Assembly (NCBI GenBank): GCA_041489155.1
Contig: JBGPQP010000001.1
Location: 25,431-89,430, forward strand
Origin: Candidatus Aenigmatarchaeota archaeon
Lineage (GTDB): Archaea; Aenigmatarchaeota; Aenigmatarchaeia; QMZP01; QMZT01
Direction: 5' to 3'
Length of the DNA stretch: 64,000 nucleotides
Position numbers and translations under genes: made by a program. Below are positions 7,518 to 60,187 of the stretch, in pieces. Position 1 is the stretch's first letter. Each line of letters begins with the position of its first letter. The notes beneath the pieces were generated by a model, which saw nothing but the letters and a program-made list of their open reading frames with translations, was not told the DNA's origin and did not search any database.

Positions 7518-7627
7518 GATAAAATATTGTCTTCCCGATTTTAATTAAAACATCGCTATTTCTTGGGTCAGTATCTATTTAAAAAAATTGTCACGAACAG
7601 TTATTATTAACTTTCAGAGGTGATGAA

Positions 7628-7888
7628 GTGTCAAAAAGCACTAGCTATTTGAGGATAAATGCCCAGTCTATACCCAAATTCCAGTTGCCTTGGCATAATT
7701 ATGGGAACGATATGTTTAAGCCAGAATACTCGGAAAAAAAACTTTTGGAACTTTTAAAAGAAGCCAATCCCGATGTTAATATTAAAAAATTGAAATTAGG
7801 TTCAGATAATAAAGGAACTTTTGTGGAAGTGGTTTATAAAGGACAAACGATACAGGTCCCGGAAAATTTAAAGAAATGTTTCGAATGA
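7628..7888 (+). CDS. small hypothetical protein (86 aa)
   Basis: ORF in a markedly AT-richer stretch (about 7520-7930) directly upstream of the pilin-like glycoprotein gene; no motif. Confidence 0.3.
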   Translation: MSKSTSYLRINAQSIPKFQLPWHNYGNDMFKPEYSEKKLLELLKEANPDVNIKKLKLGSDNKGTFVEVVYKGQTIQVPENLKKCFE

Positions 7889-7928: not shown

Positions 7929-9122
7929 ATGAGGGGGCAGTTTTATTCTATCATAGCGATATTTGTCACCATACCTATCGTCTTCTTCATATCGCTCTAC
8001 GTCGCCTCGCAAGGAGGCGAGAGCGGCGTCTACGAGAAAATAGTCTCCGACCAGATACATCAGGTGGAGAGGAGCGTGGAAAACGACTTCGGCAAAGCAA
8101 TCGTTACTTCGGGGAAGAGGGCGATGATAGCTGGGGACGATTACGTCGTGATGAACGGCCAGCCCATGAGCAATGCTGTGAGCGGCATGAAAGAGCTTAT
8201 GGAGAACGGGACGATCTACGGCAATGAAAGCATGCTCATGGTAAACAACACTATATCAAACTGGATCGCGAAAATTATCGCGGTTGCCGTGAACTTCGAC
8301 GTCAACATAAGCTATTCTGGCCTACAGATTTCGGGCAATAACTCATTCAACCTGAAAGCGTCGGCAAACATAAACGTGTCCGTTGCCGACGACCTCGGAA
8401 TCGCGAGGGTGGACAGACTAAACCAGTATTACGAAGCCCTTGTTCCAATCGAGGGGGCGGAAGATCCTGTATTCTCTCTCAAGACGAACGGCGTAATAAC
8501 GAGGTCGATAAAGATATCGCCTTACCCCTACAGGGCGAAAAGGCTCGTCACTGGCGGCTTGAATTCGACCGGCAATTGCACCGGCAATGTCACTTTCAAC
8601 AAGACGGACTGCACTTCCAAGATACTTGTTGCGGAAAACATTTCTGGCATCAGTTTCGGCTGCTTTTCCGGCTTCATTATAGAGGAATCGGCCAACCTTA
8701 CCGCCAGTTCAGACTGTTTTGTGACCGGCAATTCCACTGCGTTCGAAAGCATGACGCAGGCCATTGCCAACACAGGATATGCAAGAATTTATCTCGATGG
8801 CAGCACGAAATCGGCGTGGCATCTTCCGATACGGGAAGAAATAGACAACAAATATTATTTCACGGGGAATGGACCGGATTTCCTAAAAAGGCTCGAAGGC
8901 GATTTGAACGCGACAACAGATGGCATTGAGACAATAGTGAATCTCCCGGAACTGGAAAGTTATGGAATTCCGATAGACGACAACGTCATCTCCGTGGATT
9001 ATATATATTTCGGGAACCAAGACTATATTGGGTATCCCGTTAGGGGTTTGCAGGGCTGGCTCAGGCTAAACAGGACTTTTGCTGACAGGTACGGCCTGAC
9101 AGAATTGTGCGAAGGATGTTGA
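7929..9122 (+). CDS. large secreted pilin-like glycoprotein with KGQ-type class III signal peptide
   Basis: The N-terminus MRGQFYSIIAIFVTIPIVFFISLYVAS has a basic residue, then Gly, then Gln(+1), then a hydrophobic helix; this is the EppA-type prepilin signature. More than 15 N-x-S/T sequons (NGT, NES, NNT, NIS, NNS, NVS, NST, NCT, NVT, NKT, NLT, NAT, NRT) indicate an N-glycosylated extracellular protein. 397 aa. Confidence 0.55.
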   Translation: MRGQFYSIIAIFVTIPIVFFISLYVASQGGESGVYEKIVSDQIHQVERSVENDFGKAIVTSGKRAMIAGDDYVVMNGQPMSNAVSGMKELMENGTIYGNESMLMVNNTISNWIAKIIAVAVNFDVNISYSGLQISGNNSFNLKASANINVSVADDLGIARVDRLNQYYEALVPIEGAEDPVFSLKTNGVITRSIKISPYPYRAKRLVTGGLNSTGNCTGNVTFNKTDCTSKILVAENISGISFGCFSGFIIEESANLTASSDCFVTGNSTAFESMTQAIANTGYARIYLDGSTKSAWHLPIREEIDNKYYFTGNGPDFLKRLEGDLNATTDGIETIVNLPELESYGIPIDDNVISVDYIYFGNQDYIGYPVRGLQGWLRLNRTFADRYGLTELCEGC

Positions 9123-12373: not shown

Positions 12374-12661
12374 CTATTTCTTAAGCACCAGATGCTCGGG
12401 CCTTGATATGACTTCCTTGTTTTTGTTGCCGACCCTGATGACTACTATATATGCGTCCCCTCTTCTTTCCTTGACCTTGCCAGCAAGACCCTTGAATTTG
12501 GGAAAGGGCATTCCTTTGTGTGACGAGGGGTCCGGTTTTATGACTACCATATCGTGCGGCTTGAATTCCTTTAGATATGGGGTTACCTTGAACTTGTGCC
12601 TCAATTCTCTCTTAAGCTTCCTTCTTGTCGATCTCCTAAAGCCTTTTGTTGCTCTTACCAT
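12374..12661 (-). CDS. rpl21e: 50S ribosomal protein L21e
   Basis: MVRATKGFRRSTRRKLKRELRHKFKVTPYL…KPDPSSHKGMPFPKFKGLAGKVKERRGDAYIVVIRVGNKNKEVISRPEHLVLKK matches the L21e pattern (KGMPH/F..Y/FHGKxGxV..RRGxAYxV…PEHL). The internal Met is at 12661..12659, in the same frame as the upstream Pus10 ORF with no intervening stop. Confidence 0.8.
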   Translation of the reverse strand: MVRATKGFRRSTRRKLKRELRHKFKVTPYLKEFKPHDMVVIKPDPSSHKGMPFPKFKGLAGKVKERRGDAYIVVIRVGNKNKEVISRPEHLVLKK

Positions 12662-13819
12662 ATTATTCAGTCCTTGAAGACCTATCAGGTCGAACTCCTT
12701 TATTTTCGCGCTGTTTTTCAATACCTGCGAGACCGACGGCGTGGTTCTGCCAGCATCGCCGGTTATCAGTTCATGCAGGTATAAGCCGGACTCGACAGAT
12801 ATTTCAATTTGGTATCTTTTAGTATTAATCCTTTTCCATTTTATGCTTTTAACCTTTTTATGCTTTGTTTTGTCCGGTTTGCGACCCAAAACCCTGCTCG
12901 GCGTCCTCTGTTTTATTGTGCCGACCAGTTTTTTAAGTTCGCCTATTTCTGATACGGGATTTTCGAAATCAACTATTGCCCGGAAGATTTTGTAAGGTTT
13001 TTCTGACTTGATTCTGGCTATTTCATCCCTACCGGAAAGGCGGAGACCTGTAACCTTCACCTTCCTGTTCGCATTTATTGTTTTGGCGATTTCTTTCAGG
13101 TTCAGCCTCCTTCTGGCAGGCTGTTTTATTTCTATCACGAATGGTCTCCAGACGAGGCATCTTGCTTCCTTGTCCTCTCTTCCCAAGGCATGGAGCAGGT
13201 GTGTTTCGCCTTGCGTGGCTTTCATCATGGGTTTTGCTATTATATCCTCCACCGAATCCCTGTACCGATGCGAACTTGTCTGTGGGAGACCGCGACTGAA
13301 TTTCTTGTATTTGCCGTACACAAAAACCGGGTTGTATGAAACCTCGAACGCCATTTTCTGGACGTCAAATATTATAAGAACGTCAGGTTTTTCGTGGTCA
13401 ATTTTTGCCCCTGTTTTCTTTTTTATAATCTCAGAAAGCTGCCAGGATATTTCAGCTTTTATTGGCTCGGAATACTTTGCCCCGGTCTTCTCCCAGAGAG
13501 ACTCTTCGTTCATGACTAGCGAGTCGCTCATCCTGACACCAACCATGAAAGTACGTAAATCCATCTTATTCAGGCCTTTTAATTTTTTATTCACCAAACC
13601 GCCAAGACCGGCGAGAAAATTTTCGCAGAGCATGCATTTTTCTGCTCTGTTTTGGGGGAATGACATCCCCTCCCTTTCAAGCATTCTGCGGACAAGGCGG
13701 CCTTTGTCATTATTGTTCTTTCCAATGACCGCTTTCGAGAACTGACGACCGAGGCAGTTGTCGCAAACATATCCCAAGCTGAGAAGTTTTATCGCAGCCT
13801 CTTTTATCGTCTTTTTCAT
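12662..13819 (-). CDS. pus10: tRNA pseudouridine synthase Pus10 (the ORF continues in frame into L21e)
   Basis: N-terminal Zn-ribbon CDNC…C, a THUMP-like middle region, a catalytic block HALGREDKEARCLVWRPFVIE (Pus10 GREDxDxR…RPF motif) and a C-terminal …ELITGDAGRTTPSVSQVL… motif. The six-frame track shows one 481 aa ORF, 12374..13819, with no stop before the L21e Met. Confidence 0.75.
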
Positions 13820-15511: not shown

Positions 15512-15815
15512 CAGGGGGCCTCCAACTGCGGGGCTAGGCCTACCGCACCTTCGGGTGGCAAACGGTCTTCATGGCCGGTTGTAGTTTACGGGTGGCTTTG
15601 CGAGGACTGCAAGCCCAGTCCTGCCAACTGAGAAGCCTTGTCCTGCAGGATCATCTTCATAGTGAACCGGGTCAGGGTCGGAAAGTTTCGCACGTTCCGC
15701 GTGCGTGCCCCGAAAGACAGCAGCCCTAAACCGTGTTGGTGGTGCTTGCAGGGTTACAGGGTGGAGAAGGCGGACCGGATAACTTCCAGCTTTTCGTAAA
15801 AGTCTAACGTTAACA
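15512..15815 (+). ncRNA. signal recognition particle RNA (7S/SRP RNA), boundaries approximate
   Basis: A GC-rich non-coding island in an AT-rich genome. It contains GGGGCUAGGCC near the 5' end (common in archaeal 7S RNAs) and the helix-8 region CCGGGUCAGGGUCGGAAAG…GAAAGACAGCAGCCC, which resembles the conserved CCAGGUCAGGUCCGGAAGGAAGCAGCC core of SRP RNAs. The only ORF here (15569..15856, minus) is arginine/proline-rich and looks like an artefact. Confidence 0.6.
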
Positions 15816-15893
15816 CGCCTCCTGCTCTTTGTTATATTTCCGTAAACAAGCAGCAATTCTCGGATTTTTTATAGGCGATGACAATATTTTAAT

Positions 15894-27025: not shown

Positions 27026-27139
27026 CGGACCTGGGGGGATTCGAACCCCCGACCTTTAGCTTAGGAGGCTACCGCTCTATTGTCGACCGAAGCAGACTAT
27101 GTCTGCTTACTACGAAGTTTCCAACTGAGCTACAGGTCC
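27026..27139 (-). tRNA. tRNA-Arg (anticodon CCU) with a ~41 nt intron in the D-loop
   Basis: The reverse complement reads GGACCTG-TA-GCTC-AGTTGG-[AAACTTCGTAGTAAGCAGACATAGTCTGCTTCGGTCGACAA]-TAGAGC-G-GTAGC-CTCCTAA-GCTAA-AGGTC-GGGGG-TTCGAAT-CCCCC-CAGGTCC-G. The acceptor (GGACCTG/CAGGTCC), D stem (GCTC/GAGC), T arm (GGGGG-TTCGAAT-CCCCC) and a 7 nt anticodon loop CUCCUAA are all canonical. The insertion sits between G19 and U20 of an otherwise standard AGUUGG-UA D-loop. Confidence 0.75.
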
Positions 27140-27161
27140 ATGGCTGCCATGATGCTTTATT

Positions 27162-28997
27162 CTATAGTTTGAACAGGTTTTTAAAGAAATTCAGTACTCC
27201 GTTTATAGCCGCCGAGAACCAGTTGTCTTCCTTCTTTGAGACCAAGCTGCCGGTTGGGGTTTTTATTTGCTTTTCTTTGGGATTTTCATTTTTATTGTTT
27301 GTAGCATTTTCCTTTTCCAAGGTCTCGTTTGCCTGTTCACTGTCCTGGCCGCCGGTTTTTTGCTGCATTTCTTCTGACGGTTCTTTCACGAGTATGTCCC
27401 GTGTGATATCATGCTCCTTTCCGTCATAGATTATTTTGATACGCAGCTTATACCTGCCGGGCTCGGTATCATTTGAAATTCTGTTATTTAGGGTAACTGT
27501 GGTTGAGTTTCTTGTAGTAACTTCAACTTTATTGGCGTTCCACGTGTTGAGCCATTTCTTTCCGTCAAAACCGAGTGATAGCGGCTTATTGCCATCATAA
27601 ATGTACGAGTATACCGTGAAGTTCTTCTCCTGCGGTGTCTTCAGCAGCAGTTTTATTGCAAGTTCGGCGTTTTTGGCTATTTCATCTGGACACGAAATTA
27701 TTTCGAAATCCTTGGACACTTCATTAGGTTTTTCCGAATTATTGATTTTTTGACAAGGCGGGCAGGCGGAAGAGGAACAGGGTTTCGAGGTTTCAATCGT
27801 CTTTATTTTGCAGAAAGAACCGGAACTTCCTTCTATGTTTATTTGTTTTTCGTTGCTACCGTTAAGGCCTTCAATTTTTATAAAATACGTTCCATTCGGC
27901 AATACACCATCACAATTTGGACTTATCTGCAAAGGCACGGAAATCGTGTAATTCGAGAATTTGGTATATATGTTGAAAGTTGTCTTGCCGGCCTTCCTGC
28001 CTTCGGTATCTTCAATCCGCATTTCAACCGCGTTCTTCGTCGTATCGCCCTTGTAAATATTTATCATGACCTCTATTTCGTCGCCAAACCTCGCCTTCCC
28101 GTCAGAACCAAGTCCAGCATCAATGATGGAGATGCTGGAATCGGAAACCGGCGTGTCGCCTTCAACGACAATGATTTTTTCTGCACGATTGTTCGAAACA
28201 TTGGTGTCATTGCATTTGGCATCGGTTATTATTGCATTTATTTTATATCCTTCTGTTCCTGCCAAGGCGGGCGGAGTCCATGATTTTACAGTGGCCGTGT
28301 TGTTGGTTTTTGTTTTCGGCTTCAGAATATTGTCAAAAAAATCTTCTATCCAGTATTCAACCTCAGCTGCGTTTTCTGTTCCATTTAAATTTTTCACAAC
28401 CAGTCTGAAACTGTTGCCCTTGCCCACCGCAAAAATTTCTTCGCTTTCTATGCTTATTGACATGTCGCACTCACCATCTGTGGCGTTTGTCTGGTTAGCT
28501 GTTTGGTTCGTCTCGCTTACGCAAATATTTGGCAAACCGGGAGTAGAAATATTCTGTCTGACTAGTGTTTTTCCGCAAAGCCCATAAGAAATGTTTTTGG
28601 CAGCATTGAAATATTCGATTCGGCTTGTCTCGTTAGAACCATTAAGAATAGATATGTTGTCAGAGCTGTCTGCAAGCCTCATCCTGCTGTTTTCAAAAAT
28701 CTTTATGTTGGTTGGTTTCCACATGCCTGAGAAAACGCTGGCGTTTTTGGTGATTATTATGAATTCCCCTTGCAGGATTGTGCCATTGAGACGTGTTAAC
28801 GTAGACTCGCCTGTGTCTACACTGATATTTTCTATCACCTCATCTTGATCGCTGGCAAGTTCTATCCACTCTGAGCATTGGGAACAAGTATCGTTGGGAG
28901 CAGGCATAAATTCATTAACAAACAGGGCTTCAGCATCTGAAGGGTATATGAGCAAGATAATAACTAGGCAAAATACAATGCAGCATCTCAAGTCCAT
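27162..28997 (-). CDS. large secreted, heavily N-glycosylation-sequon-rich cell-surface protein
   Basis: N-terminal signal peptide MDLRCCIVFCLVIILLIYPSDAEA and 611 aa with dozens of N-x-S/T sequons (NDT, NIS, NGT, NAS, NET, NQT, NAT, NGS, NNT, NYT, NCS…). Ser/Thr/Asn-rich, beta-rich composition and a C-terminal amphipathic/hydrophobic tail (…NWFSAAINGVLNFFKNLFKL). Confidence 0.5.
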   Translation of the reverse strand: MDLRCCIVFCLVIILLIYPSDAEALFVNEFMPAPNDTCSQCSEWIELASDQDEVIENISVDTGESTLTRLNGTILQGEFIIITKNASVFSGMWKPTNIKIFENSRMRLADSSDNISILNGSNETSRIEYFNAAKNISYGLCGKTLVRQNISTPGLPNICVSETNQTANQTNATDGECDMSISIESEEIFAVGKGNSFRLVVKNLNGTENAAEVEYWIEDFFDNILKPKTKTNNTATVKSWTPPALAGTEGYKINAIITDAKCNDTNVSNNRAEKIIVVEGDTPVSDSSISIIDAGLGSDGKARFGDEIEVMINIYKGDTTKNAVEMRIEDTEGRKAGKTTFNIYTKFSNYTISVPLQISPNCDGVLPNGTYFIKIEGLNGSNEKQINIEGSSGSFCKIKTIETSKPCSSSACPPCQKINNSEKPNEVSKDFEIISCPDEIAKNAELAIKLLLKTPQEKNFTVYSYIYDGNKPLSLGFDGKKWLNTWNANKVEVTTRNSTTVTLNNRISNDTEPGRYKLRIKIIYDGKEHDITRDILVKEPSEEMQQKTGGQDSEQANETLEKENATNNKNENPKEKQIKTPTGSLVSKKEDNWFSAAINGVLNFFKNLFKL

Positions 28998-33508: not shown

Positions 33509-33919
33509 ATGAAGTTCAAGTTTGTTAGCGATCTGACTTCGGACGTTGTTTTCGAGGCGTACGGGAAGGATCTGAAGGAAGTTTTTGAAAACGCAGCCAT
33601 CGCTCTATTCAGCGTGATATGCGATATCAAGAAAGTGAACCCTCTCATGAGAAAGGATGCCGAAGTCCAAGGCAAAGATGCCAAAGATCTTATGTTCAAC
33701 TGGCTCCAGACCCTGATAAGCATGGTCGACATCGAGTGTGCCTTTTTCTCAAAATTCGAAATAAAAAAAATATCCGAAAAACATTTGAAGGCACAGGTCT
33801 ATGGTGAGGATGCCGAACCGAAAAAGGGCCTTACTGTCGTGAAGGCCGTGACCTATTACAAGTTCAACTTGGAAGAAACAAAAAGCGGGTACAAGGTAAC
33901 AGTGGCGCTGGATATATAG
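33509..33919 (+). CDS. archease (RtcB activator)
   Basis: MKFKFVSDLTSDVVFEAYGKDLKEVFENAAIALFSV… matches the archease N-terminus (M.KFEfLeHTADvkfrAyGktLeEaFenAA.Am); ~136 aa; convergent with rtcB. Confidence 0.8.
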   Translation: MKFKFVSDLTSDVVFEAYGKDLKEVFENAAIALFSVICDIKKVNPLMRKDAEVQGKDAKDLMFNWLQTLISMVDIECAFFSKFEIKKISEKHLKAQVYGEDAEPKKGLTVVKAVTYYKFNLEETKSGYKVTVALDI

Positions 33920-33924: not shown

Positions 33925-35331
33925 TTATCCTTTGCATACGCCAACAGGCACCGCTCTTGCAACTTTGAGCGAGATGCCGATGCCGTGCACGCTTTCTATC
34001 ACGTCGTCGACGTTTTTGTAGGCATCAGGCGCTTCCTCAGCTAAGACCATGGGATGGGTTGACTGCGCAATTATGCCCTTCCTAGCAAGGTCTTCCTTGA
34101 CCTTGCCGCCCCAGAACCTCTTTATGGCATCATTCCTCGACATCGCTCTTCCTGCACCGTGCACGGTCGAGCCGAACGCCTTTTCCATCGATTTCTCGGT
34201 TCCCTTGAGCAGATAGCTTGAAGTGCCCATGGTACCGGCAATAAGCACCGGATCGCCGGGAAAGCTCCTTGTCGAGCCTTTACGGTGCACATAAACCTTG
34301 CGCTTCTTTTCCTCGATCTTGTGCTCCTCAACTTTCACGACGTTATGACAGAGGCCGTAAACCGTATGCATATCCATCGCCTCCCAATTCTTATGAAAAA
34401 CTTTTTCAAACGTCTCGCGAATCCACTGGGTCATCACCAAACGGTTTGTAAAGGAATAATTCACGGCGCATTTCATGGCTGAAAAATAATCCAGGCCTTC
34501 CGGCGATTTCGCAGGCGCGCAGGCGAGCTGCCTGTCAGGAAGCCATATCTTGTATTTGTCGACCGCTTCCTCCTGAATTTTTAGGTAATCTGTCGCCACT
34601 TGGTGACCAAGACCGCGCGAACCGCAGTGAAGCATTATCAGTACCTGATCCTGATTTCTAATGCCCCATTTTTTTGCAGTTTCTGCGTCGTAAATATCAG
34701 TGACCCTCTGCACTTCAAGGAAATGGTTTCCTGCACCCAGCGTACCGAGCTGCTGAAGGCCACGCTGCCTTGCAAGAGGCGAAACCTTTTTCGGGTCCCC
34801 GCCGTTCATGCATCCCTTCTCTTCCATGTGTTCCTTGTCATCGGCGATGCCATAACCGTTCTCTATTGCCCAGTTCACGCCGCGCGTCAGGACCTGATCA
34901 AGCTGGTCGCTCGTCAGCTTAAGCGTGCCCTTCGCCCCGACGCCACAGGGTATCTTTTTGAAAAGCGATGATATGAGCTCGTTTAGCTTTGGTTTCAGTT
35001 CGCTGTAAGTCAGATTGGTCCTTATCGAATTGACGCCGCAGTTGATGTCAAAGCCACATAGGCCGGACGATATTATGCCGTCCTCGAAATCAAAAGCGCT
35101 CACCGCTCCCATCGGCAGGCCGTATCCCCAGTGCATGTCCGGCAGGCCGATAACAGGCTCTATCACGCCGGGCAGGCAGGCGACATTCGTAAGCTGTTCT
35201 ACAGCCGCGTTTTCAAGACCATCAATCACCTTTTTGTTGCCTATGATCTTCGCCTTGACGTTCATCCTTGGTCTAACGTTTTTTTCCAGTTCCCATTCGT
35301 AAGGCGAAATCTGCTTCAGTTTTTCTTTCAT
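33925..35331 (-). CDS. rtcB: RNA-splicing ligase RtcB
   Basis: Conserved blocks GLPDMHWGYGLPMGAV, GFDINCGV, HCGSRGLGHQVATDY, AGTMGTSSYLLKGT and HGAGRAMSR; 468 aa. Confidence 0.9.
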   Translation of the reverse strand: MKEKLKQISPYEWELEKNVRPRMNVKAKIIGNKKVIDGLENAAVEQLTNVACLPGVIEPVIGLPDMHWGYGLPMGAVSAFDFEDGIISSGLCGFDINCGVNSIRTNLTYSELKPKLNELISSLFKKIPCGVGAKGTLKLTSDQLDQVLTRGVNWAIENGYGIADDKEHMEEKGCMNGGDPKKVSPLARQRGLQQLGTLGAGNHFLEVQRVTDIYDAETAKKWGIRNQDQVLIMLHCGSRGLGHQVATDYLKIQEEAVDKYKIWLPDRQLACAPAKSPEGLDYFSAMKCAVNYSFTNRLVMTQWIRETFEKVFHKNWEAMDMHTVYGLCHNVVKVEEHKIEEKKRKVYVHRKGSTRSFPGDPVLIAGTMGTSSYLLKGTEKSMEKAFGSTVHGAGRAMSRNDAIKRFWGGKVKEDLARKGIIAQSTHPMVLAEEAPDAYKNVDDVIESVHGIGISLKVARAVPVGVCKG

Positions 35332-39810: not shown

Positions 39811-40074
39811 TTACATTATGTCCTTTTCGGATACTATGACGAAGTCCCCCACGGATTTGACCGCAGAGAATGGTACCAGCGTGCGTCCTTTGTCATCTTC
39901 CTGCAGGTTGAGTTCACCAGCATGCTTCGTTGGTTGAACTAGGACCAGATTGATGAGTTCTCCAGATTCAACAATGTAATCAAGATCGCCTACCACTCCG
40001 AATTTCTTTCCGCTTTCCTCCGAAATGAGTATCTTACCTATAAGGTCCCTGCTTCTTACTCTTTCTTCTGACAT
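39811..40074 (-). CDS. PRC-barrel domain protein
   Basis: 87 aa with the characteristic …LIGKILISEESGKKFGVVGDLDYIVESGELINLVLV… beta-barrel pattern. Confidence 0.65.
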   Translation of the reverse strand: MSEERVRSRDLIGKILISEESGKKFGVVGDLDYIVESGELINLVLVQPTKHAGELNLQEDDKGRTLVPFSAVKSVGDFVIVSEKDIM

Positions 40075-40123
40075 AAAAACCCTCCCTCGATAATGATATT
40101 ATTAAAGTGTGATATTTAAAAAT

Positions 40124-41215
40124 TTATGCATGAACCATAAGGGTTCTTATCTTTTCAGATAATACATACTGGTAGCTTTTGCCTCTTTTCTTTCTTATGA
40201 TAGTTGCGTCTTTCACAAGCCTTTTAAGAATGTTGTTTATGGACCGTATCGCATTATCCTTGCTCTTGTAGTCGCCCATGTCCATTTTCTCAACGATTTC
40301 CGTCGGTGTCAGCTCTCCGTATTTCCATAATATTTCGATTATATTCCTTTGTTTTGACGGCAGAGATTTCAGGGAACCGAATGAGGTTCTTCGAGAATGG
40401 CTAATGTGTGTTTCGAATTCTGCATCTCTCATGAAGTTCATGTCAACAGTAGAGATGTTGTCCACAAGTGCCTTGTTCACCAAATCGTTGCACATCCTTA
40501 TAACTTCACGCGGGAAGCCTCCTGTTTTTTCGTATATCATTTCTACTGTTTCCGAAGTGAACGGCTTTATGTCTTCGCCACCAACGTGTTCTATCCTTCT
40601 TTTTATAAGCTCCCTGATTTCTGATTTTGTAAGATTTATGAGTTCAACCTTTGTGTTGGCCCTTCTCATGAATGTTTCAAGTCTGTCTCTCAGAATAGGT
40701 TCTAGTGTAGGCAGACCTGCAATTACAACAGATAGATTGTCTATCTGGTCGGTAAGAGTTCTAAGCCACTCTAGCGTTTCCGTGCTTGCCTCATGGCCTT
40801 CATCCACGAGAAGAACGGCTTTTTTATTCTTCATTTTTTCGTTCACCCATTCACTGAGATTGTAAATGTTTATGTTTTTGCTGCGTGAAAATAATCTTTC
40901 GAGTGTTCCTACGTGTATGAAGTTGGTGAAAATCTTCACCCAGTCGTCTGGATTGCTCGGTGGTTTCGAAAGGTAAAATATTTTTCTGTGTTTTTCGAAC
41001 CTATTCGTCAAAAACTTCAAGAGCGTTGTTTTTCCTGATCCCGTTGGGCCTATTAATATTGACAATTTGTCATTGTTTTGTATACTGGTTGACAATTTTT
41101 CTGTCTCTCTGCTATATCCTACGATTAAATCCGGAAGTATCTTGAAACTGAAGGGGTTTTCTCTCCAGCTAAATACCTTCATATATTTTTCATCTAACTT
41201 CATTTCCAAATTCAT
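40124..41215 (-). CDS. Orc1/Cdc6-like AAA+ ATPase with C-terminal winged helix
   Basis: The N-terminus …ENPFSFKILPDLIVGYSRETEKLSTSIQ…LSILIGPTGSGKTTLLKFL follows the Orc1/Cdc6 pattern (Lxxd-Y-P..L..RExE…GxxGTGKT). Walker B LLVDEGHE; sensor regions; a C-terminal wH (…KQRNIIEILWKYGELTPTEIVEKMD…). It is shorter (363 aa) than canonical Orc1. Confidence 0.5.
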   Translation of the reverse strand: MNLEMKLDEKYMKVFSWRENPFSFKILPDLIVGYSRETEKLSTSIQNNDKLSILIGPTGSGKTTLLKFLTNRFEKHRKIFYLSKPPSNPDDWVKIFTNFIHVGTLERLFSRSKNINIYNLSEWVNEKMKNKKAVLLVDEGHEASTETLEWLRTLTDQIDNLSVVIAGLPTLEPILRDRLETFMRRANTKVELINLTKSEIRELIKRRIEHVGGEDIKPFTSETVEMIYEKTGGFPREVIRMCNDLVNKALVDNISTVDMNFMRDAEFETHISHSRRTSFGSLKSLPSKQRNIIEILWKYGELTPTEIVEKMDMGDYKSKDNAIRSINNILKRLVKDATIIRKKRGKSYQYVLSEKIRTLMVHA

Positions 41216-41337
41216 AATTTCATATAATTAGGAAAGCTATTTAAATGCTTTTCGTGAAGTTGTGTGAACTTTGACTGAAAAAGGTCTATGTTTATACGTG
41301 ATGAAAACAATTTATATAAGTTCTCCAAATTCATTTC

Positions 41338-41892
41338 ATGAGGTGCTTCATAGCTATAGACGTCGATGAAAAACTTTTTGATAAGATTACAGAACTGCAG
41401 AAAGGAATTAATAAACTGAATGTTGACGTGAAGCTTGTTGAACCTGAAAATCTTCATTTCACGGTTAAATTTCTGGGGGACATGAATGAAGATGAAGTGA
41501 ATGAAATTAAGAATTCGCTTGGCGAATGTCTTAAAAATGAACATGAATTTAAAATCAACATTACAGGCTTTAATTATTTTGGAAACCCGAGCTACATTAG
41601 AACTCTGTGGTTGGATGTGAAAGAAGGCCAAAATGAGCTTAAAAAACTGGTTCAAATGGTTAACGATTGTGTTAAAATAGGCAAACTTGAAGTTTTGCCT
41701 CATCTGACACTTGGAAGAGTGAAAAGTCCCATAAATAAAGATTATTTGATCAAGTTCATAAACGAGAATAAAAACGTGAAGATTGGTGAAATGAACGTGA
41801 ACTACGTGAAATTAAAAGCGAGTACGCTTACGAAAAACGGTCCAGTATACAATAATTTGGCTGTTTTCAACTTGGTGCCTTGTTATGAATGA
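41338..41892 (+). CDS. thpR: RNA 2',3'-cyclic phosphodiesterase / 2'-5' RNA ligase (ThpR/LigT, 2H family)
   Basis: Two H-x-T/S-x motifs of the 2H phosphoesterase fold: LHFTVKFLG and PHLTLGRV. 184 aa. Confidence 0.8.
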   Translation: MRCFIAIDVDEKLFDKITELQKGINKLNVDVKLVEPENLHFTVKFLGDMNEDEVNEIKNSLGECLKNEHEFKINITGFNYFGNPSYIRTLWLDVKEGQNELKKLVQMVNDCVKIGKLEVLPHLTLGRVKSPINKDYLIKFINENKNVKIGEMNVNYVKLKASTLTKNGPVYNNLAVFNLVPCYE

Positions 41893-42268
41893 GAAAAAAC
41901 TAACGAAGATAAGTGCTGTTGGTGTGTGCATAAGCATAATAGCTCTGTATATTGTAACAAATCAAATCTTTTCAGTAAATGTGAATATTGGTGAAATTGA
42001 CAAGTCATTCATCGGAAAGAGCGTTAATATAACAGGTACGGTGGTTGGCATAACAAAAAACAAGGGTAATTTTTTCGTGGACCTTGAAGATGACACGGGC
42101 AAAATAAAATTGATATTGTGGGAGGATACTGCTGAATTGTTGCAATCAAACGGCATTGAAATCAACGAACTGAACAAAGGTAACATTATTAACGTTGTGG
42201 GTGAGGTTCAGGTATACAGGGGCGAATTAGAAATTATACCTATAAGAGGAAATTTGAATTTTTTGTGA
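41885..42268 (+). CDS. membrane-anchored OB-fold nucleic-acid-binding domain protein
   Basis: N-terminal TM helix (ISAVGVCISIIALYIVT), then an OB-fold-like block (KSVNITGTVVGITKNKGNFFVDLEDDTGKIKLILWED…INVVGEVQVYRGELEI), similar to the tRNA_anti/RPA-type OB folds. Translationally coupled to thpR. Confidence 0.5.
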   Translation: MNEKKLTKISAVGVCISIIALYIVTNQIFSVNVNIGEIDKSFIGKSVNITGTVVGITKNKGNFFVDLEDDTGKIKLILWEDTAELLQSNGIEINELNKGNIINVVGEVQVYRGELEIIPIRGNLNFL

Positions 42269-42269
42269 A

Positions 42270-43307
42270 CTAGAAACGTTCATGCGCAGTTTTGATAAGT
42301 TCTGTCACGAGTTTAATTATATCCTTCACATCATTCATATCCGAAACTTCTGTTGGTGTGTGAAGATAACGTGAAGGTGCCAATATCGCTAGTGAGGGTA
42401 TACCTTCTCTTATCATCGGTGTCATTGAAGCGTCAGTTGCACCTCCTGAAACAATGTCGAATTGTATCTTCATGTTGTTCTTTTTTGCAGTATCAACTAC
42501 CCATTGTTTAACCTCATTTTGTATAATACTTATTGCATCTTTTATCATAAGAACCGGTCCTTCTCCAAGTTTTGCAGTGGCCTCATATGGTTTGATTTCA
42601 GGTGTATCGCCGGCTGTTGTTACATCAAGGGATATCACTATGTCAGGGTTTGTTGCAAATACAGAGCCCCTTATGCCTATAAGCCCTATTTCTTCTTTCA
42701 CTGTTCCAACTGCATAAACTGTCCCTTTGAATTTAGTTTTCTTTAAATTTTTCATGACTTCTATTAATTCCAAGCATCCTATGCGATCATCGAATCCATA
42801 TCCCGTTATTCTAGAACCACAAAGTTTGTCGAACTCGCCATAATTTGTTATGAAATCTCCTGTCCTGATACCCATTTTTTCAACTTCTTTTTTGTTCTTT
42901 GCCCCCACATCTATGAACATTTCTGCTAACTTCACGGGCTTGTTCACGTCTTCTTTGTCTTGGAGGTGAATTGGTTTTGAACCAATAACTCCTATGACGG
43001 GTCCCTTGGAGCTATGTATCTTGAATTTTTGCGAAAGAAGGATTTTGGGATCCCATCCTCCTATGGTTTCAAATCTTATGAAACCCTCATCGTCTATATA
43101 TTTCACCATTAAACCTACTTCATCCATGTGGGCACTGAGCATTATTTTAGGAGAACCAGATCCTTTTCTGCATATCAAGTTACCTATTTTGTCAACTTTA
43201 AGTTCTTCAACATATGGTTTCAGTTCTTTAATCAGCACATCTCTTACGTTTTTTTCATCGCCGGAAATTGAAGGAGAATCTACAAGTTTTTTCAATGTTT
43301 CTTCCAT
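42270..43307 (-). CDS. M42-family metallo-aminopeptidase (FrvX/TET-like)
   Basis: Metal-binding blocks SAHMDEVGLMV, GFDDRIGC and later E/D/H ligands; 345 aa typical of M42 peptidases. Confidence 0.85.
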   Translation of the reverse strand: MEETLKKLVDSPSISGDEKNVRDVLIKELKPYVEELKVDKIGNLICRKGSGSPKIMLSAHMDEVGLMVKYIDDEGFIRFETIGGWDPKILLSQKFKIHSSKGPVIGVIGSKPIHLQDKEDVNKPVKLAEMFIDVGAKNKKEVEKMGIRTGDFITNYGEFDKLCGSRITGYGFDDRIGCLELIEVMKNLKKTKFKGTVYAVGTVKEEIGLIGIRGSVFATNPDIVISLDVTTAGDTPEIKPYEATAKLGEGPVLMIKDAISIIQNEVKQWVVDTAKKNNMKIQFDIVSGGATDASMTPMIREGIPSLAILAPSRYLHTPTEVSDMNDVKDIIKLVTELIKTAHERF

Positions 43308-43367
43308 ACGGACACCACCTACCTACTATCGACTAGATATAAAATATTGGTTTTCCGGTCTATAAAT

Positions 43368-44660
43368 TCATTCTATATCTTCTTTTGACAGGATGTTAAC
43401 TGGAGATTTTAAGTTTTCCTTTTCCATTCCAACCAAGAACTTCACGGATTTCCTTCTGGCTATCATGTCAAGTTTGTAGTCAACCCTGCCGTCGAATATG
43501 ACTGCGTACGGGTTGTCAAGCGTTTTCAGCGTATTCTGTAATTCTTTGGTTGGAACCTTACCCAGAATGTTGAAAAAAGAATCGAAAATGCATGCGGCTC
43601 TGGTTCCTATAAGTTCGTCAAGTGTTTTCTTGAATATCTTTTTCTGTTCATCGGTTATCGTTGTTCTCTTGGGAAGAGGTTGCTGCTGTTTAAAATCCTT
43701 ATCTCTCTGGACGAATTCGTTCATTGGTCTTTCTGTCGATGGCGGCCTCTCAAAGGGTTTCTCAATTGGTCTTTCAATGGGCCTTTCTATGGGTCTTTCT
43801 CTTCTTTCATTGTTGTTCTGCCTATCGATCTTGCCTTCGAGTTTAAATTGTGATGCCGATATCTTGTCCCTCAATGCCTTGAAAACCTCTTTTTTGGTGA
43901 GCTCTTCTACCTCTTTGCCTTCTGGAGCAATGGCAACAAAATCAAGGTCTGTCGTTTCCATCAGGCTTTTCAAGTTCAAAAAGCCGCCCCTGTCACCATC
44001 AAAAAATGCAGTGGTTGTTTTTTGTTTTGAAAGGTTGATTATTGTTTGTGGTATCGAGCTGCCTTCTATGGCTATTACGTTCTTGATTCCGTATCTAATC
44101 ATATTTATTACGTCTGCCCTTCCTTCAACTATTATTATTTCTTCCGACTCTAGAACACCTGGGCCGCAAGGCAAACCCTGATAGCTGGTTATTTCATAGG
44201 TCTTTATCTCCTGTCTTATCTCTTCCGCTATCTTGGTTGTGTCCGGTATGCCTTTCTCAAGAAGTTCTCTCAATATCGATTTTGCCTTTTCTATGACGAA
44301 TTTTCTCTTTAATTCCCTAGTGTCCTCGACTGATTTCAGTATTATCTTTGCGATGCAGGGTCCGACCCTCTCTATAGTTTCCAAAGTAGCGGCTATTAGA
44401 GCAGTTTCTGCTGAGTCGAGAGAAGACGGAATTATGACCTCTCCGTGAGATTTACCTCTTTCGGAATTTATGTTAACCTCGATTCTTCCAATTCTTCCAG
44501 TTCTTTGCAGTTCCCTGAGATCGAGATCAGAACCAAGCAGCCCTTCTGTTTGTCCGAATATTGCTCCTATAACATCAGGTTTTTCTATTACTCCCTGAGC
44601 GTCTATTTCTGCCCTTACAACGTATTTTATCGACGTTGGCGCGAGTTTTGACATGAACAT
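43368..44660 (-). CDS. dnaG: archaeal DnaG-type primase (Toprim)
   Basis: Archaeal DnaG N-terminal signature VIGAIFGQTEGLLGSDLDLRELQRTGRIGRIEV. Toprim core IIIVEGRADVINMIRYGIKNVIAIEGS with DxD (FDGDRGG). An internal tandem peptide repeat ERPIERPIERPIEKPFERPP is present. Confidence 0.85.
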   Translation of the reverse strand: MFMSKLAPTSIKYVVRAEIDAQGVIEKPDVIGAIFGQTEGLLGSDLDLRELQRTGRIGRIEVNINSERGKSHGEVIIPSSLDSAETALIAATLETIERVGPCIAKIILKSVEDTRELKRKFVIEKAKSILRELLEKGIPDTTKIAEEIRQEIKTYEITSYQGLPCGPGVLESEEIIIVEGRADVINMIRYGIKNVIAIEGSSIPQTIINLSKQKTTTAFFDGDRGGFLNLKSLMETTDLDFVAIAPEGKEVEELTKKEVFKALRDKISASQFKLEGKIDRQNNNERRERPIERPIERPIEKPFERPPSTERPMNEFVQRDKDFKQQQPLPKRTTITDEQKKIFKKTLDELIGTRAACIFDSFFNILGKVPTKELQNTLKTLDNPYAVIFDGRVDYKLDMIARRKSVKFLVGMEKENLKSPVNILSKEDIE

Positions 44661-45033
44661 CCTCCTCCAATGAAAGAGAATCCGGGCTATTCAGAGCTCC
44701 GAAATCCTCAATTTTATTTTTTCCCAAAGTCATTACCTTCCACCTTAATTCCGAATTTGGACTTTTTCCTTGCCTTTGAAGCAGGTATTTCAATTTTTTT
44801 GCAATCTCCCTGCCTTTTGTGTCGAAATCGGTCAGTATGACTACCTGTTTTTTCGCACTTAATGCGACCTCGGCCACCTCATAAAGCGGCCTGCCGTTGA
44901 TCGCAATAATATCTTTCAGGCCGAGGGTTTTTAAAGCTTTTTTGTCCATTTTCCCCTCGACTATGATCAGTTTGTCCTCCAAGCCCCTTATAACCTCATC
45001 GAGTTGCTCTTCATCGATTTGTTTGTTTTTCAT
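44575..45033 (-). CDS. small Toprim-domain protein
   Basis: LIIVEGKMDKKALKTLGL…VVILTDFDTKGREIAKKL is a Toprim (E…DxD) core. The 3' ~85 nt overlap the dnaG start; the Arg/Ser-rich tail may be out-of-frame read-on. Confidence 0.5.
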   Translation of the reverse strand: MKNKQIDEEQLDEVIRGLEDKLIIVEGKMDKKALKTLGLKDIIAINGRPLYEVAEVALSAKKQVVILTDFDTKGREIAKKLKYLLQRQGKSPNSELRWKVMTLGKNKIEDFGALNSPDSLSLEEDVHVKTRANVDKIRCKGRNRRSGSNRKT

Positions 45034-45860
45034 ATCAATGCGTCCACTATGTCTCTTTTAGTTACAATGCCAATAAGCTCTTCTTCATCAGTGACTGGCA
45101 AGCCACCTATATGCATGCTTTTCATGAGGTTTATTACTGAAAACAAGTCAGCATTGAACTGGATTGTGACCAGATCCTTGTTCATAATTTTTTCTATCTT
45201 CGTCTTATCCGTGACTAGAGTATTCAAACTCTTGTTTTTATATAAATGCTTCAGTATATCGATCGGTGTCACAACACCAAGCAGTATGTTGTCTTCCACG
45301 ACTGGCAGCCTCCTAAAACCACCCCTGCACATCATTTTTGCGACATCGTGTATATTGTTGTCTTTCCGTATGAATATTGGCCTTTCCACCATTATTTCGC
45401 TTACCTCTATGCCCACTGGTCTGTTTATTAGTTTGACTAAATCCAATTCGGAGACCACCGATATTATCTTTTTGGAATCAACTATTGGATAAAGACCACT
45501 TCTTTCCATCTTGAAAATTTCAAGCGCTCTGCCTATACTGGTCATGTAATGTATGGTTCTAACGTGTGTTGTCATGAATTTTTCGACTTTAAGTTCTATG
45601 TTTTCCCTGTTTCTCTTGAAAATCTCGTGTTTTTCGCCGCCACCGAGCAATTCCAACAGATCAATTGTTGTAACCATGCCCTTCAGAGATTCCGAATGAT
45701 CGACTACTGGTATTTTTCTTACCCCTTCCGAGAACATGAGCCTCAAAACATCCAAAAGTTTTGTTTTTTCATCAGAAAACACCAATCTTCTTGATGATAT
45801 CTCTGTTACTGTCTTTTTTGTGTCCACAAAGGCTCCGAGAACAACTTTTCTGTTAAGCAT
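45030..45860 (-). CDS. four-CBS-domain protein
   Basis: Four CBS repeats (…VRKIPVVDHSE…, …GLYPIVDSKKIISVVSELDL…, …FRRLPVVEDNILLGVVTPIDIL…, …IGGLPVTDEEELIGIVTKRDIV…). The track ORF extends to 46055, but the upstream part is hydrophobic junk overlapping the opposite-strand gene. The start was chosen at the MLNRKVV Met. Confidence 0.65.
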   Translation of the reverse strand: MLNRKVVLGAFVDTKKTVTEISSRRLVFSDEKTKLLDVLRLMFSEGVRKIPVVDHSESLKGMVTTIDLLELLGGGEKHEIFKRNRENIELKVEKFMTTHVRTIHYMTSIGRALEIFKMERSGLYPIVDSKKIISVVSELDLVKLINRPVGIEVSEIMVERPIFIRKDNNIHDVAKMMCRGGFRRLPVVEDNILLGVVTPIDILKHLYKNKSLNTLVTDKTKIEKIMNKDLVTIQFNADLFSVINLMKSMHIGGLPVTDEEELIGIVTKRDIVDALI

Positions 45861-45909
45861 AACAATCCATGAACATTTTATTTTAATTGGAATGAAATAA
45901 AAAATTATC

Positions 45910-47010
45910 ATGCCGAATTTTAAAGGAGCGCTGAAAACAAAGCTACCAAAAAAATTAGAGGACAGGGTATCTCTGCTGTTTATAATCATTACGCTGCTTT
46001 TGGCTTTTTTTCTTACGTTTTCCATTTCATTTATAGTAGGTAAACCGATTGGCACAGATTTCTGGTTTCACCTTAAAATAGCAGAATCTTACGCGAGAGG
46101 CGAGAACGCGCTCTTCAATGAAGAATTCATGGCCCCCAACAGAGGTCCATATCCACCGCTTTTTCACCTGATGCTGGCATTGTTTGTTACTTCGGGTTTT
46201 ATTTTGCAGATAGCAACTTTTCTGCAGGTAATGTTTTATCCTTTGGCTTTGTTCACATCTGTTTTTCTGGTTTGGAAAAGGATTAATGCGTCTTCAGCGT
46301 CTTTTGTTTCTATTGCCCTCTTTTCATCGGTCGCCTTCTTTGACAGATCTATGCAAGTAATTCCTCAGGCCTTCGACATGATACTCTTTCCGCTTGCAAT
46401 TTATTTTTTTCTCACAAAGAGACGGATATTCTTCCTGATTTCTATGTCGATAATGATATATTCACACGGTGCGTTTGGTTTTCTCCTATTTAGTTCTCTC
46501 GTCTTATACAATTTAAAATACAAAGTTTCAAAGAAAATGATAATAGATGTTCTTGTTGCAACTATTCCAATACTGGTATTAATACTTGTTTTTCTTCCAT
46601 CACAAATCGGTTTGATCAATGACATAAAAAATCCGCAGGAAAAACTTATCAAGGAAAATCCAATATCTTTATTTGTTTATATGGGTATTTTTCCCACATC
46701 AACATTCATAGTTTCATTGATGCATTTTTTTCATAAAAAGAGGAAATTAAGTAAAACGGAAATAATGTCACTTTTGTGGTTAATAGTATTACTGCCGGTG
46801 ATAGTTTTTTACCCAGACAGATTTTGTACCTATGCAGTCGTTCCCGTGTCAATCTTGGCTTCAAAATTTTTGTCAGATATTTCTTTTGCTCATGGTAGAT
46901 GGTTGGGTCTCTTATTACTCGTATTTTCATTTGCAATATCATTGATTACATATTTGAACTGGTGGCAGGTTTTATATGAAACTTCTTCTGTGAGTTTTGA
47001 TATTCATTAA
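45910..47010 (+). CDS. polytopic membrane protein, possibly GT-C-type glycosyltransferase-like
   Basis: About 10 predicted TM helices with a conserved-looking first periplasmic loop (KPIGTDFWFHLKIAESYARGEN). This resembles PMT/ArnT/AglB-like GT-C N-terminal loops only loosely. Confidence 0.4.
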   Translation: MPNFKGALKTKLPKKLEDRVSLLFIIITLLLAFFLTFSISFIVGKPIGTDFWFHLKIAESYARGENALFNEEFMAPNRGPYPPLFHLMLALFVTSGFILQIATFLQVMFYPLALFTSVFLVWKRINASSASFVSIALFSSVAFFDRSMQVIPQAFDMILFPLAIYFFLTKRRIFFLISMSIMIYSHGAFGFLLFSSLVLYNLKYKVSKKMIIDVLVATIPILVLILVFLPSQIGLINDIKNPQEKLIKENPISLFVYMGIFPTSTFIVSLMHFFHKKRKLSKTEIMSLLWLIVLLPVIVFYPDRFCTYAVVPVSILASKFLSDISFAHGRWLGLLLLVFSFAISLITYLNWWQVLYETSSVSFDIH

Positions 47011-47032
47011 TAAGAATGGATAAATTATAACT

Positions 47033-48412
47033 ATGAAAAATGTACTTGAAAAGGTTCTTAAAAAAATAGTGCCAAGCAAGAATGAGATAGAAGAATTTTC
47101 TAGAATACTGAAAGACGTTCTGCATGCCGCCGACATGGTTTTGAAGCCTCTGAAGCTTGAAAAAACAATCGCCGGTTCATTCATACGTGATACGTGGCTT
47201 GCTGACAAGCGTGAGCTGGATCTTTTCATAATGTTTCCTGTTTCATATTCGCGCGAAAGACTTGAGAAGGTTGGCATAAAGATTGGCAAAAAAATCATGA
47301 AAAAACTAAATGGCAGATACGAGATAGCCTATGCTGAACATCCGTATGTTAAGGGGTGGTTCAGAGGCTTCATGTTAGATATAGTTCCATGTTATAAAGT
47401 CGAATCAGCTTCAAAAATAAAATCTGCTGTCGATAGAACGCCTTTCCATAACAAATACATTATTGAAAATCTGAAACCGAAAATGGCAAACGAGGTCCGT
47501 CTTCTTAAACAATTCTGCAAGGCGATGGGGGTTTATGGCTCTGACGTAAGAACCCAGGGATTTTCGGGTTACCTATGCGAACTGCTGATAATAAAATACA
47601 AAACTTTCAAAAATTTGTTGATTGAAGCTAAAAAATGGGAATTCGGCATTTTTATAGATTTGGAGAACCACTGCAAATTCGACTATCCTACCGAACAATT
47701 TAAAGGCCAGCCATTGATTGTTATAGACCCAACAGACCCAAAAAGAAATGTTGCTGCTGCCCTCTCAGACGATAATTTCATGAAATTCATTGAAACCTCT
47801 GGGGAGTTTATTAAAAACCCATCTACAAAGTTTTTCGAAATAGACAAGACTGCACTTAAAGGAATTCTGTTAAAAAAATATTTGAAAAAAAGAGGTACGG
47901 AGTTTTTTGTGATAGAGTTCAAAAGACCGGAAATTGTTGATGATATATTATGGTCCCAGATGAGGAAAACTTCAGTTAGAATGGCCAATCTTTTGGGAGA
48001 AAACGAATTCGAAATTTTCAAAAAAGAGGTATGGAGTGATGAAAAACGTTCTTATCTATTATTCGAGATGAAGGTGTGGAAACTGCCAGAAATAAGAAAG
48101 GTTATGGGGCCACCCGTCGGTTCGCAGAAACACGCAGATGAATTTAAAAAGAAATATGCAAGTAGTGCTTACATAGAAGGAGATAGATGGGCAGCCGAAG
48201 TTAAGAGAAAAAACAGGGACTGCGCTTTACTTTTTAAAAAATTCCTAAAAAAACCTAGTAAAAAATTGCAGAACGAAGGGGTAAGATCTTATATTGCAAA
48301 GAGCATTTCTAACGGTTTTAAAATTCTTGGAAGCAAAAAAATTGAAGAGTTGATTGCAAAAAATAAAGATTTTGCTGTTTTTCTCAAAAAATATTTTGAG
48401 AGGAAATTATGA
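47033..48412 (+). CDS. cca: CCA-adding enzyme (archaeal class I tRNA nucleotidyltransferase)
   Basis: N-terminal nucleotidyltransferase signature AGSFIRDTWLADKRELDLFIMF (GS…R.T.L…D.D); ~459 aa, typical for archaeal CCA enzymes. Confidence 0.8.
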   Translation: MKNVLEKVLKKIVPSKNEIEEFSRILKDVLHAADMVLKPLKLEKTIAGSFIRDTWLADKRELDLFIMFPVSYSRERLEKVGIKIGKKIMKKLNGRYEIAYAEHPYVKGWFRGFMLDIVPCYKVESASKIKSAVDRTPFHNKYIIENLKPKMANEVRLLKQFCKAMGVYGSDVRTQGFSGYLCELLIIKYKTFKNLLIEAKKWEFGIFIDLENHCKFDYPTEQFKGQPLIVIDPTDPKRNVAAALSDDNFMKFIETSGEFIKNPSTKFFEIDKTALKGILLKKYLKKRGTEFFVIEFKRPEIVDDILWSQMRKTSVRMANLLGENEFEIFKKEVWSDEKRSYLLFEMKVWKLPEIRKVMGPPVGSQKHADEFKKKYASSAYIEGDRWAAEVKRKNRDCALLFKKFLKKPSKKLQNEGVRSYIAKSISNGFKILGSKKIEELIAKNKDFAVFLKKYFERKL

Positions 48413-49301: not shown

Positions 49302-49372
49302 ATATTTAAATACCTTATCTGACAAGAATAAAGAATTACAGCCGTGTACTGCGTAAGCAGGAGGTTGCCATA

Positions 49373-57169: not shown

Positions 57170-57299
57170 GGGCTCGTAGCTCAGCTGGTTAGAGCGCCGG
57201 TCTTATAAGACCGTCAGGCGTCATGCCTGATAGCTTTGAACCGACAATCATCGGTTATAGGAAAGCCGGAGGCCAGGGGTTCGAATCCCCTCGAGCCCA
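57170..57299 (+). tRNA. intron-containing tRNA with anticodon loop CUUAUAA (UAU, Ile/AUA-decoding)
   Basis: GGGCTCG-TA-GCTC-AGCTGGTTA-GAGC-G-CCGGT-CTTATA[AGACCGTCAGGCGTCATGCCTGATAGCTTTGAACCGACAATCATCGGTTATAGGAA]A-GCCGG-AGGCC-AGGGG-TTCGAAT-CCCCT-CGAGCCC-A. Acceptor, D and T arms are canonical. The ~56 nt insert sits at or near the canonical 37/38 site. The anticodon TATA can pair with TATA at the intron 3' end, and ACCG/CGGT can form the outer helix, as a bulge-helix-bulge motif would require. Confidence 0.7.
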
Positions 57300-60151: not shown

Positions 60152-60187
60152 ATTTATAAAATGAGATTCAGCCTTTTATCCTTTCGG

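Follow-up and report, generated by a model that had tools for sequence, protein, structure and literature searches.

Does a tRNA-like locus whose D-loop is split by a long insert still give rise to a tRNA, and if so, which nucleotides are removed? The locus lies on the minus strand at positions 27026..27139 of the window, i.e. the whole 64,000-nucleotide stretch of DNA that was analysed, and belongs to a tiny archaeon of the Aenigmarchaeota (DPANN). It is a genuine tRNA-Arg(CCU) gene with an interrupted D-loop. With a probability of roughly 0.85, we take it to be a functional gene that carries a bulge-helix-bulge (BHB) intron, its transcription, cleavage and ligation being steps that we infer.

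A tRNA-Arg(CCU) gene with an interrupted D-loop

Read on the minus strand from 27139 to 27026, the gene begins with GGACCUG UA GCUC AGUUGGA (40 nt) UA GAGC G GUAGC CUCCUAA GCUAA and continues, after the anticodon arm, with AGGUC GGGGG UUCGAAU CCCCC CAGGUCC G. The following elements were assigned:

27026..27139 (-): complete tRNA-Arg(CCU) gene; a precursor body of 114 nt that would give 74 nt after splicing
27120..27139 (-): 5' exon, nt 1-20, delimited by the BHB scan
27026..27079 (-): 3' exon, 54 nt, delimited by sequence, Rfam and the BHB scan
27063..27065 (-): anticodon CCU, which reads AGG, from the sequence and from ARAGORN on the spliced form
27156..27166 (-): TATA-like element TATAGAATAAA, read from the sequence, 17-27 nt upstream of the mature 5' end

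An earlier note on this DNA had described a tRNA-Arg(CCU) with an insert in the D-loop and with arms that are otherwise canonical. The identity of the gene is borne out, since acceptor, D, anticodon and T arms are all there and ARAGORN calls a 74-nt tRNA-Arg(cct) as soon as the insert is removed. The description of the arms has to be amended at one point, as the anticodon stem is topped by a G27.A43 mismatch, the sole irregularity in the arms. The 5' exon comprises the 5' strand of the acceptor stem, U8 A9, the D-stem strand GCUC and the D-loop nucleotides A14 G15 U16 U17 G18 G19 A20. The 3' exon supplies U20a A21, the D-stem strand GAGC, the anticodon arm, the variable loop, the T arm, the 3' strand of the acceptor stem and the discriminator base G73; CCA is not encoded. 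Excision of 40 nt leaves a cloverleaf with the arginine anticodon CCU and retains A20, an identity element for arginyl-tRNA synthetase (ArgRS). The codon read, AGG, is the commonest arginine codon in the 13 long ORFs of the window (26 per 1000).

The TATA-like element TATAGAATAAA overlaps the stop codon TAG of an upstream ORF of 611 aa, and similar A/T-rich elements are found upstream of most syntenic orthologues. TATAGAATAAA may thus serve as the promoter of the tRNA-Arg gene. The 611-aa ORF itself (27162-28997, minus strand), located immediately upstream of the tRNA gene, has no Pfam match. A lamin-tail (LTD) domain is found in some of its orthologues, and the DNA sequence that codes for the C-terminus of the ORF, aatttctttaaaaacctgtt, has been conserved among relatives.

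Standard searches are blind to the gene

With default settings, ARAGORN reported no tRNA in the whole window, and Rfam at the gathering score found only a tRNA-Ile at 57170-57299. The expectation that ordinary searches would miss the gene was therefore correct. A permissive Rfam search returned a partial tRNA match to the 3' two thirds of the gene (27.5 bits against a threshold of 29; E about 1e-3 in a 401-nt search), and this match was built on a false D-stem. ARAGORN, which the earlier note had proposed as a check, detects the gene when introns are allowed (option -i), although with a forced and wrong intron at position 31/32. For the BHB models of tRNAscan-SE 2, the training sets came from Crenarchaeota/Euryarchaeota and from Thaumarchaeota. 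A T-arm motif search for hidden tRNAs in the window yielded the two tRNAs, plus one chance match inside alaS. Thus, both default ARAGORN and the Rfam gathering score overlook a tRNA for the arginine codon that the organism uses most. As a consequence, annotations of Aenigmarchaeota and similar DPANN genomes seem to lack tRNA-Arg(CCU), and estimates of completeness and codon capacity can be distorted.

A bulge-helix-bulge motif places the intron after A20

The sequence alone cannot place the exon-intron junctions (GGA/AAC...CAA/UAG), because A residues are present on both sides. A systematic scan of the junctions looked for 4-bp helices with a 3-nt bulge at either end, one on each strand. In the best solution, G15UUG18 pairs with CGAC close to the 3' terminus of the insert, with four of four pairs formed. 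The elements of the motif are as follows:

27122..27125 (-): helix H, exon strand G15 U16 U17 G18, pairing with CGAC at 27082-27085
27082..27085 (-): helix H, intron strand CGAC, from the BHB scan and the orthologue alignment
27119..27121 (-): 5' bulge G19 A20 / A, with the predicted cut after A20, from BHB geometry
27079..27081 (-): 3' bulge A A / U20a, with the predicted cut before U20a
27116..27118 (-): helix h', 5' strand ACU, pairing with GGU at 27086-27088
27086..27088 (-): helix h', 3' strand GGU, from the orthologue alignment
27080..27119 (-): predicted 40-nt BHB intron AACUUCGUAGUAAGCAGACAUAGUCUGCUUCGGUCGACAA, from the BHB scan, coordinates confirmed by blastn
27090..27108 (-): intron-internal hairpin AAGCAGAC-AUA-GUCUGCUU, from folding

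The archaeal endonuclease EndA cuts after the second nucleotide of each bulge. Under this rule the splice sites of the BHB lie at nt 20/21 and 60/61 of the precursor, and excision of 40 nt would give a 74-nt tRNA with the D-loop AGUUGGAUA, whose junction is that of the intron-less orthologues. BHB geometry and the uninterrupted GGAUAG of those orthologues together place the predicted intron as 40 nt following A20.

A BHB motif is present at the junctions, in which two 3-nt bulges frame the 4-bp helix GUUG/CGAC and a further helix lies on the intron side. The exon-side helix h is the 4-bp D-stem, and it is set apart from helix H by an A14.A21 mismatch beside the 3' bulge. On the exon side, this mismatch leaves the motif slightly relaxed, resembling the HBh' form. 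The intron-side helix h' has 3 bp in the window and 2-6 bp in orthologues, with covariation.

The hairpin AAGCAGAC-AUA-GUCUGCUU inside the insert, which had been noticed before, exists at 27108-27090. The hairpin sequence shows no conservation, being disrupted even in L001, a relative whose PheT is 95% identical, and most other orthologues have a different hairpin at its place. A C/D-box guide RNA was also considered for the 40-nt intron and was rejected on reading the sequence, as the intron is too short and has no C box.

The motif is retained in ten orthologous genes

The tRNA-Arg gene is located just downstream of pheS-pheT, between a gene for a MinD/ParA-like ATPase and the ORF of about 600 aa, and this order is kept in metagenomic relatives. 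The best named relatives of the PheRS beta subunit (PheT) are found in MAGs of Candidatus Aenigmarchaeota (63-69% identity); among metagenomic relatives one is 95% identical and several are 70-74% identical. Ten distinct orthologous sequences have an intron at the same D-loop site (the window, L001, L003, L005, L008, L010, L015, L016, L018 and L021), with lengths of 40, 40, 39, 40, 41, 26, 31, 31, 40 and 36 nt, respectively, and with largely unrelated interiors. Synteny downstream of pheS-pheT is common to eight of these ten loci. The two others, L008 and L010, were found by DNA pattern only, in an exact-pattern search with the 3' exon. Four further PheT relatives (L020, L022, L023 and L024) are not syntenic downstream and added nothing.

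A BHB is present at the same place in all ten sequences, and each predicted product has 74 nt and the junction GUUGGA^UAGAGC. Likewise, the two 3-nt bulges occur in 10/10, as GA/A and AA/U (AU/U in L005 and L008). Pairs were counted in an alignment of exons and intron ends of the ten orthologues. Helix H is paired in 39 of 40 cells, its intron strand being CGAC, CAGC, CAAC or CUGC, with neutral changes from U:A to U:G. For helix h' the count is 29 of 30 paired cells, with both partners changed at two of its three pairs. Neither the covariation score nor the percentage of paired cells was reached by any of 500 shuffles, and slid controls were paired in 24-67% of cells.

L005 and L008 also allow the cut rule to be checked. 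With their 3' bulge AU/U, the product reads GGAUAG solely if each bulge is cut after its second nucleotide, which is independent support for both the rule and the predicted intron boundaries. The ten introns do not count as ten independent events, since orthologous introns are probably homologous.

The exons vary little. Among the ten intron-containing sequences the 5' exon differs at acceptor positions 3 and 6 only, and GGA at positions 18-20 is common to all orthologues. Where pairs of the acceptor, anticodon and T stems vary, both partners have changed. Variation without a pairing partner is confined to five columns in unpaired regions (position 26, two in the variable loop, the G27.A43 column and T-loop position 59).

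Alternative readings of the locus

The way in which exons and insert have diverged bears directly on whether the insertion simply broke the D-loop, leaving a pseudogene that yields no functional tRNA. In lineages with PheT 67-74% identical, just the five unpaired exon columns vary unpartnered; over the same span the insert diverged almost completely, yet the H and h' pairings were kept. Such constancy of the exons, together with the retained pairings, is predicted for a spliced functional gene and not for a decaying pseudogene. A pseudogene would fit the rejection by default tRNA finders, the fact that the BHB is not predicted as the minimum-energy fold, and the endonuclease gene not being visible in the window; however, it sits poorly with a predicted product that equals the intron-less orthologue sequence, with a conserved promoter-like element and conserved synteny, and with AGG as the main arginine codon. 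We consider loss of function very unlikely. The position of the intron invites a second doubt. The earlier note had placed an insert of 41 nt between positions 19 and 20 and expected a spliced product of 73 nt, i.e. the same mechanism with an intron between G19 and U20 and the D-loop AGUUGGUA. ARAGORN accepts the 73-nt version as well, and the flanking A residues make the junction ambiguous, but this cut misfits a 4-bp helix with two 3-nt bulges and would drop the ArgRS identity element A20. The intron-less orthologues, with GGAUAG or GGACAG, have nine D-loop nucleotides including A20, and L005 and L008 (3' bulge AUU) reach GGAUAG solely with the 40/41-nt BHB cut. The BHB cut and the orthologues thus give 40 nt after A20 and a 74-nt product, and the 41-nt version is about as improbable as the pseudogene. 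Still less weight, close to none, attaches to the 41-nt intron in the anticodon stem at 31/32 that ARAGORN -i reports. This model was rejected, as it builds a D-arm of two pairs from intron sequence, has no BHB and is inapplicable to orthologues with different introns; the call is an artefact, because the program allows introns in the anticodon arm only.

Folding predictions raise a different issue, concerning the conformation of the precursor. In ViennaRNA folds, unconstrained or partly constrained, the BHB did not come out as the structure of lowest energy. When the other arms were enforced, GUUG was paired with CAAU, a register shifted by 3 nt (27079-27085 with 27122-27125, minus strand) that consumes the 3' bulge and the first nucleotide of the 3' exon. 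Conceivably, the precursor is mainly in this register, without a proper 3' bulge, and the intron would then be removed by a relaxed recognition of the bulge-helix-loop type or after refolding induced by the enzyme. Of nine orthologues folded with ViennaRNA, seven indeed have the GUUG:CAAU fold as their optimum, better by 2.8-8.0 kcal/mol, and this register is paired in 38/40 cells, against 39/40 for helix H. Conservation speaks against it. The shifted register leaves the invariant C at the 5' end of the CNNC pattern unexplained, and likewise the purine preference at its two middle positions; the one change that occurs in this register, A to U in L005 and L008, abolishes a pair; and it sets no cleavage sites that would give the observed orthologue sequence. 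As the CNNC pattern is unexplained and no cleavage sites are defined, we take the shifted register as a competing conformation rather than the substrate, and the chance that it governs removal of the intron appears slim, slightly below that of a pseudogene. The preferred reading remains a BHB intron of 40 nt, excised after A20 from a functional tRNA-Arg(CCU) precursor.

Intron-less relatives and a second intron site in the T-loop

Among the relatives, three distinct sequences have no intron at all, a fourth is interrupted in the T-loop only (59/60), and a fifth carries both introns. The D-loop is uninterrupted and reads GGAUAG in L006/L012/L014, L017 and L019, and GGACAG in L007. The intron-less orthologues score 69-71.5 bits with the Rfam tRNA model. 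In L017, a 48-nt T-loop intron occupies 8522-8569 (minus strand) at position 59/60, and the D-loop is intact. Its BHB is strict (UUCG/CGGA, bulges AA/U and AA/U), with the T-stem as exon helix. L021 combines a 91-nt T-loop intron at the same position (7574-7664, minus strand) with a D-loop intron of 36 nt, and removal of both leaves a 74-nt tRNA-Arg. The introns of L017 and L021 indicate that non-canonical as well as multiple introns are tolerated in the clade.

Both T-loop introns end in a second copy of GUUCG(G)AAAU, and that of L021 contains a further GGUUCGAGAAAUCC hairpin. Since UUCGAA is palindromic, the central helix of a BHB would arise by itself if part of the T-loop were duplicated. 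Partial T-loop duplication is thus a possible origin of the 59/60 introns, as judged from their ends.

A neighbour-joining tree of PheT placed the intron-less L007 and the T-loop-only L017 among lineages with the D-loop intron, and the intron-less L019 outside of them. This topology, weakly supported at the relevant nodes, suggests a single gain of the D-loop intron with later losses. The states seen among relatives (D-loop only, T-loop at 59/60 only, both, neither) might be read as a natural series of ongoing BHB-intron turnover in one orthologous gene, which would imply a DPANN-type EndA of broad specificity that is not yet characterised; we hold this wider reading only tentatively and think it rather doubtful. 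In blastn searches of the window and 23 loci (309 kb), no further copies of the D-loop, T-loop or tRNA-Ile introns were found outside tRNA genes, and hence there is no direct sign of transposition. With ten introns at one site along with intron-less and T-loop forms, the genes make up a compact set of orthologues for the study of intron gain and loss.

Predicted splicing pathway

The TATA-like element that lies directly upstream would direct transcription of the gene. The precursor is predicted to fold such that G15-G18 pair with CGAC and form the central helix of the BHB, with the bulges G19 A20/A and A A/U20a. The D-stem would then lie on the exon side, behind A14.A21, and a 3-bp helix plus the hairpin on the intron side. 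EndA would cut after the second nucleotide of each bulge and free the 40-nt intron, and the exons would be ligated by RtcB together with archease. As the gene encodes no CCA, a CCA-adding enzyme is needed, which would complete the 3' end and give a 74-nt tRNA with the D-loop AGUUGGAUA that reads AGG. Three candidates for these steps are encoded in the window:

33925..35331 (-): RtcB, archaeal tRNA-splicing ligase (Pfam PF01139, E = 2e-155)
33509..33919 (+): archease, RtcB cofactor (Pfam PF01951, E = 2e-34)
47033..48412 (+): CCA-adding enzyme (Pfam PF09249, PF21133, PF01909)

Archease and RtcB form a divergent pair 6.4-8.2 kb from the tRNA-Arg gene, a placement that is kept in L001, L003, L005 and L017. 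A LigT-like 2',3'-cyclic phosphodiesterase/ligase is encoded at 41338-41892. Several tRNA-maturation genes (archease, RtcB, the LigT-like protein, the CCA-adding enzyme and Pus10) are thus held by one 64-kb window.

The 65 ORFs of the window gave no EndA-family Pfam match, including a lenient rescan of the small unannotated ORFs. A tblastn search of 309 kb (the window and 23 loci) with an approximate M. jannaschii EndA query, a weak probe, returned nothing. By analogy with characterised enzymes, it is plausible that the tRNA-Arg(CCU) intron needs an endonuclease of broad specificity. More generally, the non-canonical introns predict an endonuclease of relaxed specificity in Aenigmarchaeota.

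Comparison with known archaeal tRNA introns

Protein-spliced BHB introns outside position 37/38 are known from Crenarchaeota, Thaumarchaeota, Nanoarchaeota, Korarchaeota, M. kandleri and ARMAN (PMC4090602, PMC4033280, PMC5829648, PMC8450103). The known non-canonical sites include 20/21 and 20b/21 in the D-loop and also 59/60 (PMC4090602, PMC5829648). D-loop introns have been described in tRNA-Glu(UUC) of Methanopyrus kandleri, at 20b/21, and in tRNA-Thr(UGU) of Aeropyrum pernix (PMC5829648, PMC3241643, PMC4090602). The HBh' intron of M. kandleri at 20b/21 is cut efficiently only by a loop-bearing enzyme of broad specificity (PMC5829648). Akin to the M. kandleri and A. pernix introns, the D-loop intron described here would be short and spliced by proteins, its splice sites are predicted to lie in two 3-nt bulges, its 4-bp helix uses D-loop nucleotides and its interior is free to vary; it also shares the imperfect exon-side helix with the relaxed HBh' motif of M. 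kandleri. It differs in its host, a member of the Aenigmarchaeota (DPANN), in the tRNA concerned, Arg(CCU), and in its site, which follows A20 (20/20a in a 9-nt D-loop).

Other DPANN lineages, too, are reported to have disrupted tRNA genes (PMC5829648), and several DPANN genomes surveyed by Kaneta et al. were found to contain them. Such genes are associated with DPANN alpha4 EndAs that possess an L3 loop (PMC4090602, PMC5829648). Elsewhere in the superphylum, ARMAN-1/2 (Micrarchaeum) have an epsilon2 EndA, Nanoarchaeum equitans has split tRNAs, and alpha4 EndAs carry the L3 loop (PMC3239211, PMC3488258, PMC5829648). The present lineage resembles these members of its superphylum in having non-canonical and multiple introns, with an endonuclease assumed to be of broad specificity; in contrast to them, no split or permuted gene was seen in it. 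The multiple-intron tRNAs of Thermoproteales, with gain, loss and transposition of introns (PMC4033280, PMC4090602), offer another parallel, in that an orthologous gene has 0, 1 or 2 introns among close relatives. However, turnover in the present case is limited to two sites in one gene, and no second intron copy was present in 309 kb.

The literature searched yielded no description of tRNA introns in Aenigmarchaeota. Non-canonical BHB introns in DPANN tRNAs as such are known, and the tRNA-Arg(CCU) gene adds a good, unsurprising example. It adds one DPANN phylum to the lineages with tRNA introns that are non-canonical and, in relatives, multiple, and leaves the current view of archaeal tRNA splicing unchanged.

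Other features of the window

A second intron-bearing tRNA gene, for tRNA-Ile(UAU), is located at 57170-57299 on the plus strand. Its intron of 56 nt is at the canonical position 37/38, and the BHB comprises CUUA/UAGG with the bulges UA/A and AA/A and one extra nucleotide beside h'. ARAGORN likewise missed this gene. The commonest isoleucine codon in the window is ATA (41 per 1000). A genome-encoded UAU anticodon for isoleucine is uncommon among archaea, most of which rely on CAU plus agmatidine.

At 15512-15824 (plus strand), archaeal SRP RNA is matched over its full length with 80.3 bits, compared with an Rfam gathering score of 96.5. The match probably reflects a divergent SRP RNA of DPANN type, one that annotation by score threshold would overlook. 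On the minus strand, 12374-13819 is an uninterrupted ORF of 481 aa in which Pus10 domains (residues 79-379) are followed by a ribosomal protein L21e domain (389-478), reflecting either a gene fusion, or a missing stop codon or frameshift, or an internal start for L21e. The genes of the window further include those for archaeal-type PheRS alpha and beta and for PPDK; together with the SRP RNA match and the relatives of PheT, they identify the host as a member of the Aenigmarchaeota (DPANN).

The region 40001-50000 has a G+C content of 0.36-0.39, compared with 0.43-0.50 elsewhere in the window. Its genes encode an AAA ATPase with a winged-helix end, LigT, an OB-fold protein, an M42 peptidase, a Toprim protein and the CCA-adding enzyme, along with unannotated ORFs. 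Towards the end of the window (57933-63864), there are six consecutive ORFs of 163-419 aa without a Pfam match at E <= 1e-5.
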